Counted from the stretch's first letter, positions 58,166 through 64,000 are shown. The stretch is DNA of 64,000 nt from Bacteroidota bacterium (GCA_003151815.1 PLYN01000041.1:9919-73918), one strand, 5' to 3'. Translations and numbers: made by a program. Notes: generated by a model not told the origin, from the sequence alone.

Positions 58166-58882
58166 ATGAACTACTGGATGTATATTTTACTTTTTTTATC
58201 TGTTATCATCAGCGGATTGAGCGTGCTGTATGTAAACATAAGCGGTAAAAATTTAAAATTGATACTTTCGTTCAGTGGCTCCTTTTTATTTGCGATCTGT
58301 GCTTTACACCTCATCCCCGAAATATATTTAAGCGGTACACCCAACATCGGGGTTTTTATATTGATAGGTTTTTTCATTCAGATTTTATTGGAATTTTTCT
58401 CGGAAGGTATAGAACACGGACACATCCATATTCACAATCATGGGCGTAAAGACAATGCTTTTCCGTATGCGGTAATGATAGGGCTTTCCATACATTCTTT
58501 TTTAGAAGGGATGCCTCTTGCCAACATTGGCACACATTCGCATAACTCCTTATTGACTGGCATTGTAATGCATAACATACCCATTGCAATGGCATTGATG
58601 ACGATGCTTTTGAAATCTCATATCTCCAAACGAACTGCAATAATGTGGCTAATAGTTTTTGCATTAATTACACCATTAGGCACTTTTACAAGTTATGCCA
58701 TCGACACCAATATCATTGGAAACCTTTCCTCTTATTTTGACAGGATAATGGCGGTGGTAGTTGGTATTTTTCTTCATATTTCCACGACCATTCTTTTCGA
58801 ATCGAGCGAAAACCACCGTTTTAATCTCATTAAATTTGTGGTGATCTTATTAGGCGCCGGCTTTGCTGTAATGAGTTTATAG
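58166..58882 (+). CDS. ZIP-family divalent metal transporter
   Basis: 238 aa with ~8 TM helices. His-rich loop EHGHIHIHNHG, HNIPIAMAL and GIFLHISTTILFE are ZupT/ZIP-like. Confidence 0.75.
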   Translation: MNYWMYILLFLSVIISGLSVLYVNISGKNLKLILSFSGSFLFAICALHLIPEIYLSGTPNIGVFILIGFFIQILLEFFSEGIEHGHIHIHNHGRKDNAFPYAVMIGLSIHSFLEGMPLANIGTHSHNSLLTGIVMHNIPIAMALMTMLLKSHISKRTAIMWLIVFALITPLGTFTSYAIDTNIIGNLSSYFDRIMAVVVGIFLHISTTILFESSENHRFNLIKFVVILLGAGFAVMSL

Positions 58883-58910
58883 AAAACTCTATATCATACA
58901 ATTTAATTAG

Positions 58911-58918
58911 TAAATTTG
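58911..58918 (+). promoter_or_regulatory. Candidate -7 box TAAATTTG
   Basis: TAnnTTTG match 21 nt upstream of the ATG at 58940. Confidence 0.4.
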
Positions 58919-58939
58919 TATTAAATAATCATTCCACAA

Positions 58940-59176
58940 ATGACAAAAACAGCCATAAAAAAGGAATTACACAAAGCCATTGATATTGTTGAGAGCGAAC
59001 AACTATTAAAAGCTATCTATATGATTTTGAACGAAGAGCTAAAAAACACAAAGCAAGCAATTAAACCTTTTACTTTGGATGAGTTTTATGCCCGTAATAC
59101 TCAATCGCAAAAAGAAATCAAACAAGGCAAACTCATAGAGCATAAAAGTGTAAGAATAAAATACGGTACAAAATAA
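58940..59176 (+). CDS. Small hypothetical protein, antitoxin-like by size and gene overlap
   Basis: 78 aa, helical/charged. Its TAA overlaps the next ATG (TAATG), a typical toxin-antitoxin junction. No motif recognised. Confidence 0.45.
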   Translation: MTKTAIKKELHKAIDIVESEQLLKAIYMILNEELKNTKQAIKPFTLDEFYARNTQSQKEIKQGKLIEHKSVRIKYGTK

Positions 59177-59385
59177 TGAAGAAGGTAAAAATATATGTAA
59201 CTACAAACATATTAGGCATAAGGCGGCTGAAAGAAAAATACTCATATATAAAGCCGACTGTCTTTTCAACATTTGACTATTTAGCTCAAATTAGCTTCTT
59301 TTTTCTCCACTCAAAATTGTATATTTGGTCGATTAAAAAAAATGGAAAGAGAACGGGCGAAAGTCATTATACAGAATTTAGTTGA
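59176..59385 (+). pseudogene. Possible relic of a truncated toxin gene (or a non-coding ORF)
   Basis: 69-aa ORF with a protein-unlike sequence after the first ~10 codons. It contains the candidate promoter of the RM gene and overlaps the RM start by 44 nt. Confidence 0.25.
59320..59327 (+). promoter_or_regulatory. Candidate -7 box TATATTTG for the type IIG RM operon
   Basis: TAnnTTTG match 14 nt upstream of the ATG at 59342, followed by an A8 tract. Confidence 0.5.
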
Positions 59386-62179
59386 TCGCTTTGCGGAACA
59401 CCGCAAGGATTATCATTTGCCCGAATATAATGAGCAAAAGACAAGACAAGATTTTATAAATCCTTTTTTTAAAGCACTTGGTTGGGACATCGACAATGAA
59501 AAAGGAGCATCCGAAGCATATCGTGAAGTAATATACGAAGACAAAGTTATCGTTCGTGGAAAATCAAAAGCGCCTGATTATGGTTTTCGTTTGTCGGGGA
59601 GCGCAAAGAAAAGATTATTTTTTGTAGAAGCGAAAAAACCTTCCGTTCCTCTTAAAACCAATAGAGAAGCCGCATACCAATTAAGACGCTATGGAAGTAG
59701 CGCACAAGCGTTTGTTTCTATCCTCACGAATTTCGAAGACTTTATTATTTACGACTGTACAAAAGTTCCTAATCTGAATGATAGTACAACCGTTGCGCGT
59801 TTGAAACATATTTCTTTTGAAGATTACATAAAGGAATTTGATTTTATTTACGACACTTTTTCACACGAAGGAGTTACCAAAGGGCGTTTCGACAATTTTG
59901 TTAAAAGTATAGCAACAAAAAAAGGAACGGACACCCTTGATAAACGTTTCGTTAAAAGCCTTGATGAATGGCGATTGTATCTTGCAAAAAGTATTGCATA
60001 TAACAACAGAAAAATAAATGATGAAGAATTAAACTTTGCGGTTCAACAAACAATCGACCGCTTAATTTTTCTACGCTTTTGTGAAGACCGCGCAGTAGAA
60101 CCCGAAAATCAATTACAAAAAGCTGTTTCAAAAGGCGATTCATATAAAAACCTAATCGACCTTTTTAAACAAGCCGATGATAAATACAATTCCGGACTAT
60201 TCGATTTTGAGAAAGATGTAATCACACCAAATCTTAAAATTGACAGCAAGGTTTTAAAAATTGTTATCAATGAACTCTATTACCCACTTTGCAATTTCGA
60301 TTTCCGTGTTATGCCCGTGGAAGTGCTGGGCAATGCGTATGAGCAGTTTCTTGGAAAAGTAATACGAATTACGCCTGCACGAAGTGTAAAAATTGAAGAG
60401 AAACCCGAAGTCCGTAAAGCAGGTGGAGTATTTTATACACCTCAATATATTGTTGAATACATTGTAAAAAATACAGTTGGTAAACTCATTGATGGAAAAA
60501 CTCCAAAAGAAATTGAAACGATAACAATCGTTGATCCCGCTTGCGGAAGCGGTTCGTTTTTGGTAGGCGCATTTGAATATATACTTAATCATCATATCAA
60601 CTGGTATCACCAAAAAGGATATGCTACAAAAAAGGGCAAAGACAATCCATTCACGCCACAAGGCACATTAACAACACACGAAAAAAAACGCATCTTAACC
60701 AATAATATTTTTGGTGTTGATTTGGATTCCAACGCCGTTGAAGTAACAAAATTAAGTTTGCTTTTAAAATGTATGGAAGGCGAAACAGAAGCATCTATCA
60801 AACAACAAATAAGCTTATTTCACGAAAGAGTTTTACCTAATCTTGACGATAATATAAAAAGCGGCAACAGTTTAATTGACACTGATATTTATGATAGCGA
60901 CATTGATTTAGGTTATGAGCAAAAAATAAAACCTTTCTCTTGGAAAAAAGGATTTCCACAAGTATTTAAACAAGGAGGATTTGATGTTGTAATTGGAAAT
61001 CCGCCTTATGGTGCAGCATTTTCAAAAGATGAAACGAAATATTTTATAGAGCGATACAAACTCCAAAATTACCAACTTGATAGTTATTTTCTTTTCATTG
61101 AAAAATCACTTAATATTTTACAACCTAAAGCACTATTAGGCTTTATCATTCCAAACACTTGGTTATTAAATTTAAAAACAGCAAAAATCCGACAATACCT
61201 TTTTTCAAAAACTGAAATTATAAATATTGTTCATTACCAAAATCCAGTTTTTGAACAAGCTGTTGTTGACACAGAAATAATGATATTCAGAAATACTTCT
61301 CCAAACAAAACACACAATATTGAAGTTGAAATATTTGATAAGAAAAATGAAAAAAGTGAAAGAAAAATAAGACAACAAAATTGGATTGATGCAAATGGTG
61401 AATCCGTAAATATTCTTGATACTGAAAAAACCCGTTCAATAAAAAGCAAATTTTCTAAACTCCCTATATTAGATGTTCTCTGCAAAATAACACAGGGAAC
61501 TAAACCATTTCAAGTTGGAAAGGGAATTCCTAAACAGACACAAAAAATTGTTGATGACAAAACTTTTGTTTCAGAAAAAAAAATTGACAAATTTTTCAAA
61601 CCTCTTTTGCGAGGAAGTTTAATGAATCGTTATCGAATAAATTGGAATAATAATTACTATATAAAGTTTGGAGATTGGCTTGCCGAACCACGTTATTCTG
61701 CGAATTATGATGCAGAAGAAAAAATAATTATTAGACAAACAGGAGACCATCTGAATGCAACTCTTGATACAAAACAATTTATTGTTCGGGATAATCTTTA
61801 TACAATTACTTCTACTGATAAAGAAATTAATTTGCGTTACATTCTTGGTTTAATAAATTCTAAATTTTTTAATTGGTACTATCAAAATATTATCAATCCT
61901 GAAAAGGGGGAAGCCCTTGCTCAGGTAAAACGTGGGCATATAGCACAACTGCCAATCAAAATAACTGCTAAAAAGGAAATAACCGTTCAATCCGAGATTA
62001 TAAAACACGTTGATTTACTTTTAAAATTGAACGAAGAAATAAAAGAAGAAAAACTTCAAACTAAAGTTGATCAAATAAAACAACGCATTGAACATAGCGA
62101 AGAAAAAATAAATCAACTGGTTTATGAGTTGTATGAGTTAACACCGGAGGAAATTAAAATTGTGGAGGGGGAAAATTAA
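59342..62179 (+). CDS. Type IIG restriction-modification enzyme (fused PD-(D/E)xK nuclease + gamma-class N6-adenine methyltransferase + TaqI-like specificity domain; Eco57I-like family)
   Basis: 945 aa. N-terminal FINPFFKALGWD...KAPDYGFRL...FFVEAKKPS (D...E-x-K nuclease). Methyltransferase motif I VDPACGSGSFLVGA and motif IV VVIGNPPYGAAF. C-terminal ...YILGLINSKFFNWYYQ is typical of the TaqI-like TRD. Confidence 0.85.
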   Translation: MERERAKVIIQNLVDRFAEHRKDYHLPEYNEQKTRQDFINPFFKALGWDIDNEKGASEAYREVIYEDKVIVRGKSKAPDYGFRLSGSAKKRLFFVEAKKPSVPLKTNREAAYQLRRYGSSAQAFVSILTNFEDFIIYDCTKVPNLNDSTTVARLKHISFEDYIKEFDFIYDTFSHEGVTKGRFDNFVKSIATKKGTDTLDKRFVKSLDEWRLYLAKSIAYNNRKINDEELNFAVQQTIDRLIFLRFCEDRAVEPENQLQKAVSKGDSYKNLIDLFKQADDKYNSGLFDFEKDVITPNLKIDSKVLKIVINELYYPLCNFDFRVMPVEVLGNAYEQFLGKVIRITPARSVKIEEKPEVRKAGGVFYTPQYIVEYIVKNTVGKLIDGKTPKEIETITIVDPACGSGSFLVGAFEYILNHHINWYHQKGYATKKGKDNPFTPQGTLTTHEKKRILTNNIFGVDLDSNAVEVTKLSLLLKCMEGETEASIKQQISLFHERVLPNLDDNIKSGNSLIDTDIYDSDIDLGYEQKIKPFSWKKGFPQVFKQGGFDVVIGNPPYGAAFSKDETKYFIERYKLQNYQLDSYFLFIEKSLNILQPKALLGFIIPNTWLLNLKTAKIRQYLFSKTEIINIVHYQNPVFEQAVVDTEIMIFRNTSPNKTHNIEVEIFDKKNEKSERKIRQQNWIDANGESVNILDTEKTRSIKSKFSKLPILDVLCKITQGTKPFQVGKGIPKQTQKIVDDKTFVSEKKIDKFFKPLLRGSLMNRYRINWNNNYYIKFGDWLAEPRYSANYDAEEKIIIRQTGDHLNATLDTKQFIVRDNLYTITSTDKEINLRYILGLINSKFFNWYYQNIINPEKGEALAQVKRGHIAQLPIKITAKKEITVQSEIIKHVDLLLKLNEEIKEEKLQTKVDQIKQRIEHSEEKINQLVYELYELTPEEIKIVEGEN

Positions 62180-63454
62180 GTGATGGATGGATTAACAATC
62201 AACCCTTGGGACGAACATAATATGAAACGTTTAAAAGCTATTTCAGAAATAGACAAAGGAATAGATGAAATTTTAAAAATCGAAAACTTGGATATAATTA
62301 GTTATGAAGATTTGACTGCTCTTTTTTTTAATCTTTTCGAGATGTTTCCAATGAATACTATTTCTTTAAAAAAAGAATTTTACAAAGATTTTAAAGTGTA
62401 TCGTGTAAGACCATTTGATGAAGAATTTGAAATTACTAATCCGAATATTTTTAGTTGTCCTCCTTGGAATGAGGATATAGGTATTGGCAGAGCGAATTGG
62501 AGAAAGAGAAATGTATTGTATGGAAGTGATTCGCCTCATACCGCTTTAAAAGAAATTAAAGAAACTTCTGTAGGAAAAGATTTCTATATTTCAAAATGGG
62601 GAATTGATTATAGTAAACTTAATGTGGATAAAATTAATATAGCAACATTACTATTTAAAAATATTCCAGAAAATAATAATTGGGACTTATGGAATGAAGA
62701 CTATAATAAAACCATTAAAGAATTAAACTCACAAATTGGAATTGAGGCAAGTGAAAAGTTAATTCATTTACATAAAAAAATCAACAATTTGTTTGTTGAA
62801 AAAGATAAGAATAAATATCCAATCACGGCATTTATAGCAGACCAAATAATTTATTTTAAAAAAAATACTTCCGAAGAAATCTATTTTCCTATACTTATTT
62901 ATCCAAGTGTAGAATCAGAAAATAAAACTGTCAATTTTGCAATACATCCATTCTTTACAGAGAAATATATGCGTCTTGAAAAAGTAATTCATATAAAATT
63001 GAATGAGAAATATCCCAATCATTTTAAAGTTGGTTTTGAAAAAATTGGGTTTTGCAATAAAGAAAACATTGTGGAATGGTATACGTTTTCTCCTGATTTT
63101 TCAAAGACTTTATATGATATTAAATCCTTAAATTGCAATTCATGTGGAAAGAAAATCGACTTGAATGATATTGATAAAATCATTTTTAAAAAAGATAATA
63201 AAGCAATAACTCACGGTGAAATTATTGCAAACTACTTTAAAGAGCAAGATTATTCTGACTTTTATAATCTCGATGATATTGACATTATGAATGATGATGG
63301 AATAGCTGTAGGAATGGATTTGAAATTCTCTGCTATTCCATTAAAAAATATTGTGGCAACGGTGAAAGACGAAGATCATACAAATTTAACTATGGATATA
63401 AATGTTAAACAACCTTATCTATATAAAAATTTCCAAAAAACATCAATAAGCTAA
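62180..63454 (+). CDS. RES-domain-like protein with an uncharacterised ~160-aa C-terminal extension
   Basis: 424 aa. The GTG at 62180 abuts the RM stop (an ATG follows at 62183). YRVRP...GIGRANWRKRNVLYGSDSPHTALKEI (R104, Y114, E125) and ILIYPSVESENKTVNFAIHP (S243) follow the R-E-S / GRxN..vlY..s...A..E / vPS.....N.v..P pattern of RES domains. Judged by eye only. Confidence 0.6.
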   Translation: MMDGLTINPWDEHNMKRLKAISEIDKGIDEILKIENLDIISYEDLTALFFNLFEMFPMNTISLKKEFYKDFKVYRVRPFDEEFEITNPNIFSCPPWNEDIGIGRANWRKRNVLYGSDSPHTALKEIKETSVGKDFYISKWGIDYSKLNVDKINIATLLFKNIPENNNWDLWNEDYNKTIKELNSQIGIEASEKLIHLHKKINNLFVEKDKNKYPITAFIADQIIYFKKNTSEEIYFPILIYPSVESENKTVNFAIHPFFTEKYMRLEKVIHIKLNEKYPNHFKVGFEKIGFCNKENIVEWYTFSPDFSKTLYDIKSLNCNSCGKKIDLNDIDKIIFKKDNKAITHGEIIANYFKEQDYSDFYNLDDIDIMNDDGIAVGMDLKFSAIPLKNIVATVKDEDHTNLTMDINVKQPYLYKNFQKTSIS

Positions 63455-63841
63455 ATGAGCATAGCACTCCGCATAAAAGATTGTATTGACAACCATGATA
63501 AGTATGTTGCCATTATGGCTACAATGCCTGATAAAAAATTATCAGAAAAATTGGATGTAATTAATATGCAAGCGATAATTGCAGAGAAAACTAAAAATAC
63601 CGGTTCATTGGAATTGCTTGAAGTTTGGTGGCGACAAGTAGTTGAAGCCCGCATTTATAAAGCGGAAAATAAAATTCCCGATGCGCCAAATGAAATTGAA
63701 GAAGCCATTAAGGACATAGAAACTTTTGTAAGCAAAACGGAAGAACGTCAGGAAATATTAACTGAGTTTAACAATCCTGTAAAACAATCTCTCCCAAAAG
63801 TTCAGCAACAAAAGGATGATAGCCAATTATCTTTGTTTTAA
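63455..63841 (+). CDS. Hypothetical 128-aa protein, third gene of the RM/RES operon
   Basis: The ATG directly abuts the RES-gene TAA (63452-63454). Predicted helical with an acidic/Gln-rich tail. No motif recognised. Confidence 0.6.
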   Translation: MSIALRIKDCIDNHDKYVAIMATMPDKKLSEKLDVINMQAIIAEKTKNTGSLELLEVWWRQVVEARIYKAENKIPDAPNEIEEAIKDIETFVSKTEERQEILTEFNNPVKQSLPKVQQQKDDSQLSLF

Positions 63842-63937
63842 CCAAAGCTTCCATAAAAGGTTCATACATCTCATCTGCTCCAAAAGCCAATTGAATTTCA
63901 AAATTTTATCCATACCTGCCCATCAAATTATTATTAT

Positions 63938-63945
63938 TATATTTG
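63938..63945 (+). promoter_or_regulatory. Candidate -7 box TATATTTG for the next gene
   Basis: TAnnTTTG match 33 nt upstream of the ATG at 63979. Confidence 0.4.
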
Positions 63946-63978
63946 CGCCCGCCTTTAAAGGCATTAGAAATAAATAAA

Positions 63979-64000
63979 ATGGATAAAAATTCAATAATTG
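63979..64000 (+). CDS. Start of an unidentified CDS running off the window end
   Basis: atggataaaaattcaataattg (MDKNSII...) follows a promoter-like box. Only 7 codons are visible. Confidence 0.3.

Follow-up and report, generated by a model that had tools for sequence, protein, structure and literature searches.

Why do a restriction enzyme gene, a long RES-domain gene, and a small gene outside the annotated families lie packed on one strand of a Bacteroidota genome, and do the three act as a single defence system? The question is raised by a stretch of 64,000 nucleotides (nt) from Bacteroidota bacterium (GCA_003151815.1 PLYN01000041.1:9919-73918), called the window below, in which genes 1, 2, and 3 follow one another with next to no spacing, as seen from the listing of open reading frames (ORFs) and by direct reading of the sequence. 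An original prediction had taken the trio for a zero-gap, undescribed defence module, with a RES toxin guarded by a restriction-modification (RM) enzyme and gene 3 as antitoxin or regulator. Our analysis points to another arrangement, namely that the locus is probably a mobile two-gene RM unit (gene 1 and gene 3) that has taken up gene 2 as a passenger. The features on which this reading is based are listed here with their window coordinates (aa, amino acids).

59342-62179, + strand: gene 1, a 945-aa single-chain type IIG RM enzyme (Pfam, PADLOC, motifs)
59573-59638, + strand: gene 1 nuclease motif PDYGF/VEAKK (PD...EAK), aa 78-99, intact in the motif scan
60533-60559, + strand: gene 1 motif DPACGSGSF, aa 398-406, intact in the motif scan
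60998-61012, + strand: gene 1 motif NPPYG (methyltransferase motif IV), aa 553-557, intact in the motif scan
62183 (ATG; or GTG 62180) to 63454, + strand: gene 2, a 423/424-aa stand-alone long RES-domain protein (Pfam, AlphaFold2, Foldseek, hhalign)
62387-62956, + strand: RES catalytic core of gene 2, aa 70-259, with conserved R75, R77, R104, Y114, E125, Y213, and S243
63455-63841, + strand: gene 3, a 128-aa conserved partner of the gene 1 type IIG subfamily (relatives, neighbourhoods, AlphaFold2)
63824-63838, + strand: C-terminal pentapeptide QLSLF of gene 3, aa 124-128, a candidate binding motif for the beta sliding clamp (DnaN)

A type IIG enzyme and its conserved partner

Judged from its sequence, gene 1 is an intact and complete type IIG enzyme, as had been claimed for it, with predicted cleavage and methylation activities. 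The elements that define the class, i.e. a nuclease, N6-adenine methyltransferase motifs I and IV, and a recognition domain in one polypeptide, are all present, in the order N-terminal PD-(D/E)XK nuclease, gamma-class N6-adenine methyltransferase, and TaqI-like target-recognition domain. Pfam matches comprised HSDR_N, Eco57I (3.5e-40), N6_Mtase, and TaqI_C, and the PADLOC model REase_MTase_IIG was matched at 2.8e-189; PADLOC called no model for gene 2 or gene 3. The locus contains no separate methyltransferase gene. No close solved structure was found for gene 1, the best matches in PDB spanning its methyltransferase part only. Across 18 complete loci, residues 1-700 of the enzyme averaged 74% identity and the remainder, from residue 700 to the end, 36%, which is consistent with swapping of the recognition domain.

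For gene 3, 219 relatives were found across Bacteroidia at roughly 60-80% identity, and Pfam, PADLOC, and NCBIfam gave no annotation for the family. A scan of 185,579 species genomes, together with neighbourhood look-ups, added 31 loci, all from metagenome-assembled genomes of Bacteroidota except for one bin labelled Saccharibacteria. In about 20 loci, a gene 1 homolog (55-68% identity) ends just 5' of the gene 3 relative. Flanking genes of the unit are not common to any of the loci, indicating that the enzyme/gene 3 pair moves as a unit. Moreover, pairwise identities of gene 1 (residues 1-700) and of gene 3 were correlated in the 18 complete loci (Mantel r 0.40, 0 of 5000 permutations). Gene 3 is a conserved partner of this type IIG subfamily and not an antitoxin or regulator for gene 2, since almost all of its more than 200 relatives follow a homologous type IIG gene without a RES gene and the relatives of gene 2 mostly come without gene 3.

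Several copies of gene 3 stand without the enzyme. Those in loci L013, L030, and L032 are intact, and those in L026, L037, L040, and L041 are decayed. Compared by eye with L011, both L013 and L030 apparently kept the last ~40 nt of the enzyme gene 5' of gene 3, which would indicate deletion of the enzyme gene.

We also noted a type III-like system (L039:4933-10291; helix-turn-helix (HTH) controller, N6_N4 methylase, and ResIII helicase, with PDDEXK_3 embedded between mod and res) that is followed by a frameshifted gene 3 relative still ending in NQLSIF. The gene 3 family is thus not strictly limited to type IIG enzymes. Two other matches of gene 3 were set aside: a replication initiator in PHROGs (E 0.0098, 16.5 bits) was treated as noise, and PbeC in PADLOC (E 0.012) was disregarded.

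A cargo slot between enzyme and partner

The junction between the enzyme gene and gene 3 measured at most 19 nt in 11 of the 18 complete loci and held 537-1919 nt of cargo in 7. The occupants, including those of four incomplete loci (L014, L017, L023, and L025), were as follows.

Window: RES protein (gene 2)
L049: RES protein and a 70-aa gene, in the order enzyme, RES, 70-aa gene, gene 3
L008 and near-identical loci: 215-aa protein of unknown function
L015: IS200-like Y1 transposase, duplicated fragment of the enzyme C-terminus, RhuM
L017: FRG-domain protein
L019: Bro-N protein
L029: PDDEXK_3, a weakly AbiU2-like protein, Trypco2
L014: 287-aa membrane protein
L022: two small proteins of unknown function
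L023 and L025: IS200-like transposases

Among these, RhuM, Bro-N, and FRG correspond to the PADLOC candidates PDC-S05, PDC-S13, and PDC-S15. The shared slot places gene 2 in the same class of accessory cargo embedded in RM loci. The GC content of gene 2 (26.7%, against 32.8% in gene 1, 34.6% in gene 3, and 34.2% in the window) also fits a separate acquisition.

Two further observations concern the slot. In L015 (8248-10008), the Y1 transposase is followed by a 34-aa copy of the enzyme C-terminus (79% identical) and then by RhuM, a layout which suggests that cargo is swapped by recombination between flanking homologies provided by gene 3 and by the conserved 3' end of the enzyme gene. A 70-aa family (MQTGKIKL..NWVNYL..GMGYQLV...) is located just 5' of gene 3 in two slots (L049:5361-5573 and L023:1609-1821); no match to it was found in PADLOC, PHROGs, or Pfam, the last searched with the L049 copy only.

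Gene 2 encodes a long RES-domain protein

Gene 2 is a genuine but divergent RES-domain protein, in agreement with the fold originally assigned to it. It matched Pfam RES (PF08808) with 24.7 bits at a curated cut-off of 23.2 (E 2.6e-5), and 43 of 48 diverse relatives matched the same model, with a best E of 3e-11. A word-indexed search returned 13 close relatives only; the family profile, run against 1.84 billion representatives, retrieved 1932 clusters at E <=0.001, including 257 at <=1e-30. Two length classes were apparent, of ~400 aa and of ~300-320 aa.

In distant relatives, R75, R104, Y114, E125, and W140 were invariant, and Y213, S243, and N252 were conserved in at least 90%. The same held in alignments A1 and A3 for R75, R104, Y114, and E125 (invariant) and for Y213 and S243 (at least 90%), with R77 invariant in A1; among close relatives S243 was invariant as well. 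The Arg, Glu, and Ser typical of RES domains are hence represented by R104, E125, and S243, the three residues that had been predicted.

The AlphaFold2 model (pLDDT, predicted local distance difference test, 80.5; pTM, predicted template modelling score, 0.76) starts with helices at the N-terminus; the core that follows is of mixed alpha/beta type and is interrupted by three inserted helices (residues 170-224), and the C-terminal domain (aa 264-417) is rich in beta structure. When it was compared with PDB by Foldseek, the sole credible match was the Pseudomonas putida Res toxin (9r35_A; prob 0.97, target TM 0.59, and a modest E of 0.04), all other matches having a prob of <=0.07. Model and match thus assign gene 2 a fold of the RES/ART (ADP-ribosyltransferase)-like type. 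A profile alignment set GRAN..PVFY.S...TA..E of gene 2 opposite GRWHQAGRPVVYAATSPPGAMLE of the Res toxin (E 1.9), the GRW...LE motif of that toxin being matched in gene 2 by R104 and E125. No significant match to a solved structure came from searches with gene 2 family sequences.

A January 2026 preprint described stand-alone RES proteins of 300-600 aa in defence islands, named aRES (Osterman et al., bioRxiv 10.64898/2026.01.28.702374). These proteins deplete NAD+, turning it into nicotinamide and ADP-ribose-1''-phosphate (ADPR-1''-phosphate), confer protection against phage, and are defined by a RES domain together with an N-terminal HEPN_RES_NTD1 domain (PF18870, HHsearch probability >80%) with a zinc ribbon (bioRxiv 10.64898/2026.01.28.702374). 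By hhalign, the gene 2 family matched three aRES sequences with 95.7% probability (E 8e-9), residues 70-259 of gene 2 pairing with aRES residues 177-350 and the N-terminal domains staying unaligned. Motif pairs (gene 2/aRES) were YRxR/FRAR, PP/PPP, GRAN/GRMN, VFYGS/VFYGA, the Glu, the Y..T..(I/V)A helix, and YPS/FKS. Conserved R75, R77, R104, Y114, E125, Y213, and S243 of gene 2 stood opposite R182, R184, R215, Y225, E236, Y309, and S334, all invariant in the three aRES sequences. With hmmscan, the E. coli UC5 aRES (first 399 aa of the protein in preprint Table S4) returned both RES and PF18870 (E 3.6e-4); for gene 2, P0001, P0010, P0012, and P0158 it returned RES alone, and no PF18870 even at E <=1, the preprint's own criterion being HHsearch. 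As the RES cores align and the N-terminal domains do not, gene 2 is homologous to aRES in its catalytic core and differs from it in domain architecture. We regard it as a new architectural variant of a recently known kind of defence protein, with a predicted role in defence. The novelty originally claimed for the locus is weakened accordingly by the preprint, yet what gene 2 shares with aRES is the catalytic core and not the N-terminal domain.

The 315-aa relative P0158 had no match among the PADLOC v2 models. Searching 72,556 plasmids by tblastn gave no match for gene 2, gene 3, or this relative, and the 315-aa class was not found in viral contigs; a metagenome scan added 6 loci only. In one relative, P0221 (976 aa), residues 11-398 make up a complete gene 2-like region, to which ~580 uncharacterised residues are joined.

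Relatives of gene 2 follow several kinds of RM systems

In 8 of the 13 informative contexts of gene 2 and its relatives, the gene is directly preceded on its own strand by an RM system, so that the expected link to RM genes was recovered for several types of enzyme.

Type IIG with gene 3 upstream: window; P0002 (L049, L050)
More distant type IIG without gene 3 upstream: P0004 (L042); P0003 (L051)
MmeI-like type IIG upstream: P0158 (L052)
EcoRV-like nuclease and Dam-like methylase upstream: P0007
Type I system upstream: P0010 (L005, L047); P0011 (L046)
No RM gene directly upstream: P0001 (conjugative element, beside CBASS); P0005 and P0009 (integrative elements); P0006 and P0013
Uninformative, at a contig start: P0012

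Relatives following type I, EcoRV/Dam, MmeI-like, or other type IIG systems were all without gene 3. As predicted, there was no sign of an Xre partner: neither a HTH nor a COG5642 gene was found next to gene 2 in the window or in the 13 neighbourhoods of its relatives, and no antitoxin-like neighbour recurred across these neighbourhoods. Gene 2 would thus appear to act without an antitoxin gene.

Some of the contexts hold other elements. At L002:1424-5631, a four-gene operon of a cyclic oligonucleotide-based anti-phage signalling system (CBASS; SMODS, bacterial HORMA, AAA ATPase, and SAVED effector) adjoins a type IV secretion system coupling protein, ~4 kb from the closest gene 2 relative (66% identity), which places that relative in the defence region of a conjugative element. 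Small DnaJ-domain proteins were encoded at no more than ~1 kb from gene 2 relatives in three mobile-element contexts that otherwise differ (L002:8976-9452, L003:12212-12706, and L005:11469-11846). The P0007 gene is followed, on the opposite strand, by a group II intron reverse transcriptase.

The tail of gene 3 resembles a clamp-binding motif

In the AlphaFold2 model, gene 3 forms a helical bundle (aa 1-72, pLDDT >90), a helix (aa 80-105), and a disordered tail (aa 103-128, pLDDT <50). An alignment of 35 relatives was conserved from position 1 to ~100, variable from 100 to ~120, and ended in (D/N)SQLSLF. The exact end QLSLF, on which the original prediction had not remarked, was present in 96 of 120 relatives. 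Most others ended in QFSLF, QLTLF, QMSLF, or similar; these variants keep positions 1, 4, and 5, and a few have a short extension past the motif. The consensus bacterial clamp-binding motif is QL[S/D]LF, with positions 1, 4, and 5 critical, and QLSLF is the conserved C-terminus of PolC (PMC12309361). Within the window, gene 3 is the only ORF with such a motif, and it carries it in the form expected of a clamp binder (QL[S/D]LF or QxxLF), on an accessible flexible segment. Papers retrieved with the string QLSLF had titles dealing nearly all with the sliding clamp, polymerase, or replication. Our literature searches returned no paper tying a clamp-binding motif or subunit to an RM system; a precedent for a clamp-controlled, restriction-like PD-(D/E)XK nuclease is NucS/EndoMS (PMC6159515).

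The tail thus suggests, without proving it, a replisome tether for an RM enzyme. It is quite possible, and we propose tentatively, that gene 3 is an accessory subunit which tethers the type IIG enzyme (occasionally RM systems of other types) to the beta clamp through QLSLF and so may couple methylation or the licensing of cleavage to the replication fork, the junction being a dedicated hotspot for abortive-infection cargo, of which the RES effectors of this new architecture, predicted to deplete NAD+, would be an example. Somewhat less likely, in our judgement, is that QLSLF serves for docking on the type IIG enzyme or on some other partner, or marks the protein for degradation, and that gene 3 is a regulatory or assembly subunit of a conventional kind, with no connection to replication. 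Such a role would suit a helical domain that is uninformative and a clamp contact that is predicted only, and short hydrophobic C-terminal peptides serve many interactions. It accounts poorly for an exact QL[S/D]LF consensus at the extreme C-terminus, past a disordered and variable linker, an arrangement also seen in PolC and further clients of the clamp.

A subgroup of gene 3 relatives has 7-8 residues past QLSLF (e.g. ...QLSLFGEVKQNEK; L013:7607-8038, P0038, P0052, P0060, and P0105), so the motif is not strictly C-terminal in that subgroup. The L013 copy with this extension is an orphan whose enzyme gene is missing.

A proposed mode of action and its alternatives

Our preferred reading, which we hold with moderate confidence, combines these parts as follows. 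Gene 1 and gene 3 would be inherited together, in differing chromosomal neighbourhoods of different Bacteroidota, and their junction would serve as a cargo slot that is usually empty and at times takes up one accessory gene or several, of kinds usual in defence islands, gene 2 being one such separately acquired passenger. The enzyme would cut unmethylated incoming DNA and methylate its own sites. Co-transcribed with the enzyme and translationally coupled to it, gene 2 would act alone as an abortive-infection effector. On infection it would be triggered to degrade NAD+, phosphorolysis (the route of aRES and MbcT/NatT) being the likeliest mechanism, and its off-state and the sensing of the trigger would probably reside in its own N- and C-terminal domains and not in a separate antitoxin. 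Gene 3 would serve the enzyme, which its helical domain may bind while the flexible QLSLF tail docks on the beta sliding clamp; such docking would place methylation, or the control over cleavage, where DNA has just been replicated.

Single-chain enzymes that modify one strand must tell newly replicated host sites from foreign DNA (bioRxiv 2021.01.06.425610; PMC2582602). A clamp tether could address that problem.

Several points weigh against this reading. (i) The RES score of gene 2 is merely 1.5 bits over the Pfam cut-off; its family profile found, among PDB sequences, only the P. putida Res toxin, and that weakly (E 1.9); and gene 2 has no match among PADLOC or NCBIfam models. (ii) The census of contexts is small, some contexts may share ancestry, and in 5 of the 13 no RM gene lies directly upstream, indicating that functional coupling to restriction is optional and giving no indication that gene 2 depends on the enzyme. 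(iii) RES enzymes may also be ADP-ribosyltransferases (ParT), for which reason NAD+ depletion by gene 2 is not certain. (iv) Binding of gene 3 to the clamp or the enzyme is predicted from single-chain models and the motif, and Foldseek searches of the helical domain against PDB and BFVD returned generic helical bundles only. (v) The intact orphans in L013, L030, and L032 could mean that gene 3 has a role independent of the enzyme.

Apart from the function of the tail, the alternative that survives best concerns gene 2 alone, which could be a selfish or decaying passenger without a role in defence, either inactive or an addiction-type toxin that stabilises the mobile unit. Its low GC content and cargo-like placement would agree with this, as would the transposases in neighbouring slots, the missing match in defence-system model libraries, and the marginal RES score. 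We nevertheless consider it improbable. The ORF is full-length, with catalytic residues (nearly) invariant across distant relatives; the family is large and conserved (1932 clusters), the AlphaFold2 model of gene 2 is confident, and the core is homologous to that of the experimentally protective aRES. An addiction toxin, moreover, needs an antitoxin, and none is conserved nearby.

PrrC is a tRNA anticodon nuclease encoded in the EcoprrI type Ic locus and kept inactive by physical association with EcoprrI. According to the original prediction, the trio would be an integrated module of this kind, in which the enzyme guards RES as a latent toxin and gene 3 is the antitoxin or regulator. The tight coupling of the three genes, the absence of an Xre partner, the RES relatives directly after RM systems in 8 of 13 contexts, and the order of enzyme, RES, and gene 3 that recurs in L049 are all in line with such a module. 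It is at odds with gene 3 accompanying the enzyme in most loci without a RES gene, with RES relatives that follow type I, EcoRV/Dam, MmeI-like, and other type IIG systems in the absence of gene 3, and with the unrelated genes that fill the same slot elsewhere. Five relatives without an RM gene directly upstream, and partner enzymes of unrelated types in the others, also differ from an effector found only with, and dependent on, one partner enzyme. We therefore doubt strongly that the three genes form one module, and an obligate dependence of gene 2 on the enzyme has lost ground.

That gene 3 is a core housekeeping gene (e.g. linked to yidC), beside which the enzyme and RES genes were merely inserted, was suspected at first on account of its many conserved relatives across Bacteroidia, its few orphan copies, and yidC as the gene downstream of it in the source contig, and was dropped after the neighbourhood look-ups and the 31-locus genome scan as highly implausible, given flanking genes unshared between loci, the type IIG gene as the only consistent neighbour, the apparent remnants of the enzyme 3' end in the orphans L013 and L030, and the correlated distances of gene 1 and gene 3.

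Junctions and flanking signals

The coordinates and close packing of the trio were reproduced; the zero gap holds at one junction only. Gene 1 stops with TAA at 62177-62179, followed at once by GTG 62180 and ATG 62183. Homolog alignment and the public gene call (423 aa) favour ATG 62183 as the start of gene 2, and the gap between genes 1 and 2 then amounts to 3 nt instead of 0. At the second junction, the TAA of gene 2 (63452-63454) is directly followed by the ATG of gene 3 (63455).

Two signals had been pointed out near these genes, and both are present in the sequence. The first is a promoter box:

59320-59327, + strand: TATATTTG, a match to the Bacteroidota -7 promoter element TAnnTTTG, 15 nt 5' of the gene 1 ATG

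TAnnTTTG was counted 113 times in the window, with 106 expected from shuffles. Being no commoner than by chance, the box is positionally plausible only and carries no evidential weight. The second, the Shine-Dalgarno-like run GGAGGGGG before gene 2, codes for the conserved C-terminal ...IVEG(E/G) of the enzyme, and a comparable GGAGG-containing string stands directly 5' of gene 3 in loci without cargo or gene 2 (L016, L020, and L024). For both reasons, the run is not specific evidence for a ribosome-binding site of gene 2. A simple scan found no terminator-like sites within genes 2-3 or past gene 3; elsewhere in 58800-64000 there were few terminator-like and many promoter-like (sigma-70) matches, none above shuffled expectation.

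Just 5' of gene 1, we noted a pair of ORFs of 78 aa and 69 aa with an ATGA-type overlap (58940-59385), the second of which shares 44 nt with the 5' end of gene 1. Possibly, this pair, which has the look of a toxin-antitoxin system, was truncated when the restriction unit inserted. The two ORFs gave no family matches and are not kept beside the restriction unit in other loci.

Implications

To the newly described stand-alone anti-phage RES proteins, the analysis adds a second large class (~1900 sequence clusters), distinct in architecture, that lacks the N-terminal domain by which aRES is defined. This class is preferentially attached to the 3' end of RM operons of several types and is missed by the current models of defence finders. 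The more novel elements are the conserved partner with its clamp-motif tail and the cargo slot, for which the functions given here are hypotheses. The slot can be mined for new defence genes, several of its occupants being unannotated. Should gene 3 truly dock on DnaN, it would provide the first link between RM and the replisome in the literature searched and an experimental handle on how single-chain enzymes spare newly replicated host DNA. It would then be a bacterial counterpart of PCNA-guided DNMT1, and would offer an answer to an old question, namely how sites that replication has just left unmethylated are protected by enzymes with only one methyltransferase domain.

Comparison with known systems

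Gene 1 resembles the type IIL/IIG enzymes of the MmeI/DrdV family in joining a PD-(D/E)XK nuclease, a gamma-class N6-adenine methyltransferase, and a recognition domain in one chain, in having no separate methyltransferase gene, and in a recognition domain that appears swappable within its subfamily. It differs from MmeI in that it resembles the MmeI models less than Eco57I and TaqI_C. MmeI and DrdV were described as working alone (PMC2582602; bioRxiv 2021.01.06.425610), whereas the gene 1 subfamily has a conserved 128-aa partner.

With clamp clients such as PolC, Pol II/IV, MutS, Hda, and insertion sequence (IS) transposases, gene 3 shares a C-terminal QL[S/D]LF on a flexible tail, and NucS/EndoMS illustrates that a restriction-enzyme-like nuclease can be under clamp control (PMC6159515). 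In contrast to these proteins, gene 3 lacks a catalytic domain; it is not homologous to any of them, and its clamp binding is a prediction.

Like gene 2, the candidates PDC-S05 (RhuM), PDC-S13 (Bro-N), and PDC-S15 (FRG) occupy the enzyme/gene 3 slot, in other genomes, but their folds are unrelated to that of gene 2. The PrrC/EcoprrI locus is comparable in that an effector of the abortive-infection type, here a predicted one, is encoded in or attached to an RM operon, and in that relatives of the effector trail RM systems of several types. It differs in that gene 2 is a RES enzyme, 5 of 13 relatives of which stand without an RM gene directly upstream.

The Xre-RES toxins (MbcT/MbcA, P. putida Res/Xre, NatT/NatR, and ParT/ParS) have the RES fold and the Arg/Glu/Ser residues in common with gene 2, whose best structural match (9r35_A) belongs to this group. 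They are about 150-230 aa long and paired with a COG5642/Xre antitoxin (PMC2701414). Gene 2 is neither short and single-domain nor adjacent to an antitoxin gene: it has 424 aa with extra N- and C-terminal regions, and no partner gene was conserved in the 13 neighbourhoods of its relatives.

The closest counterpart is aRES. Both are single RES proteins in the range of 300-600 aa, without a paired Xre antitoxin and beside RM and other defence genes, and their RES cores are homologous, including the extended region from Glu to Ser, with the active-site residues kept. The two differ in that (i) gene 2 has, in place of an N-terminal HEPN_RES_NTD1, a 69-aa helical N-terminus that does not align with it; (ii) gene 2 has its own C-terminal beta domain of ~150 aa; and (iii) aRES genes were described as not operonic, whereas gene 2 would be translationally coupled inside an RM operon.

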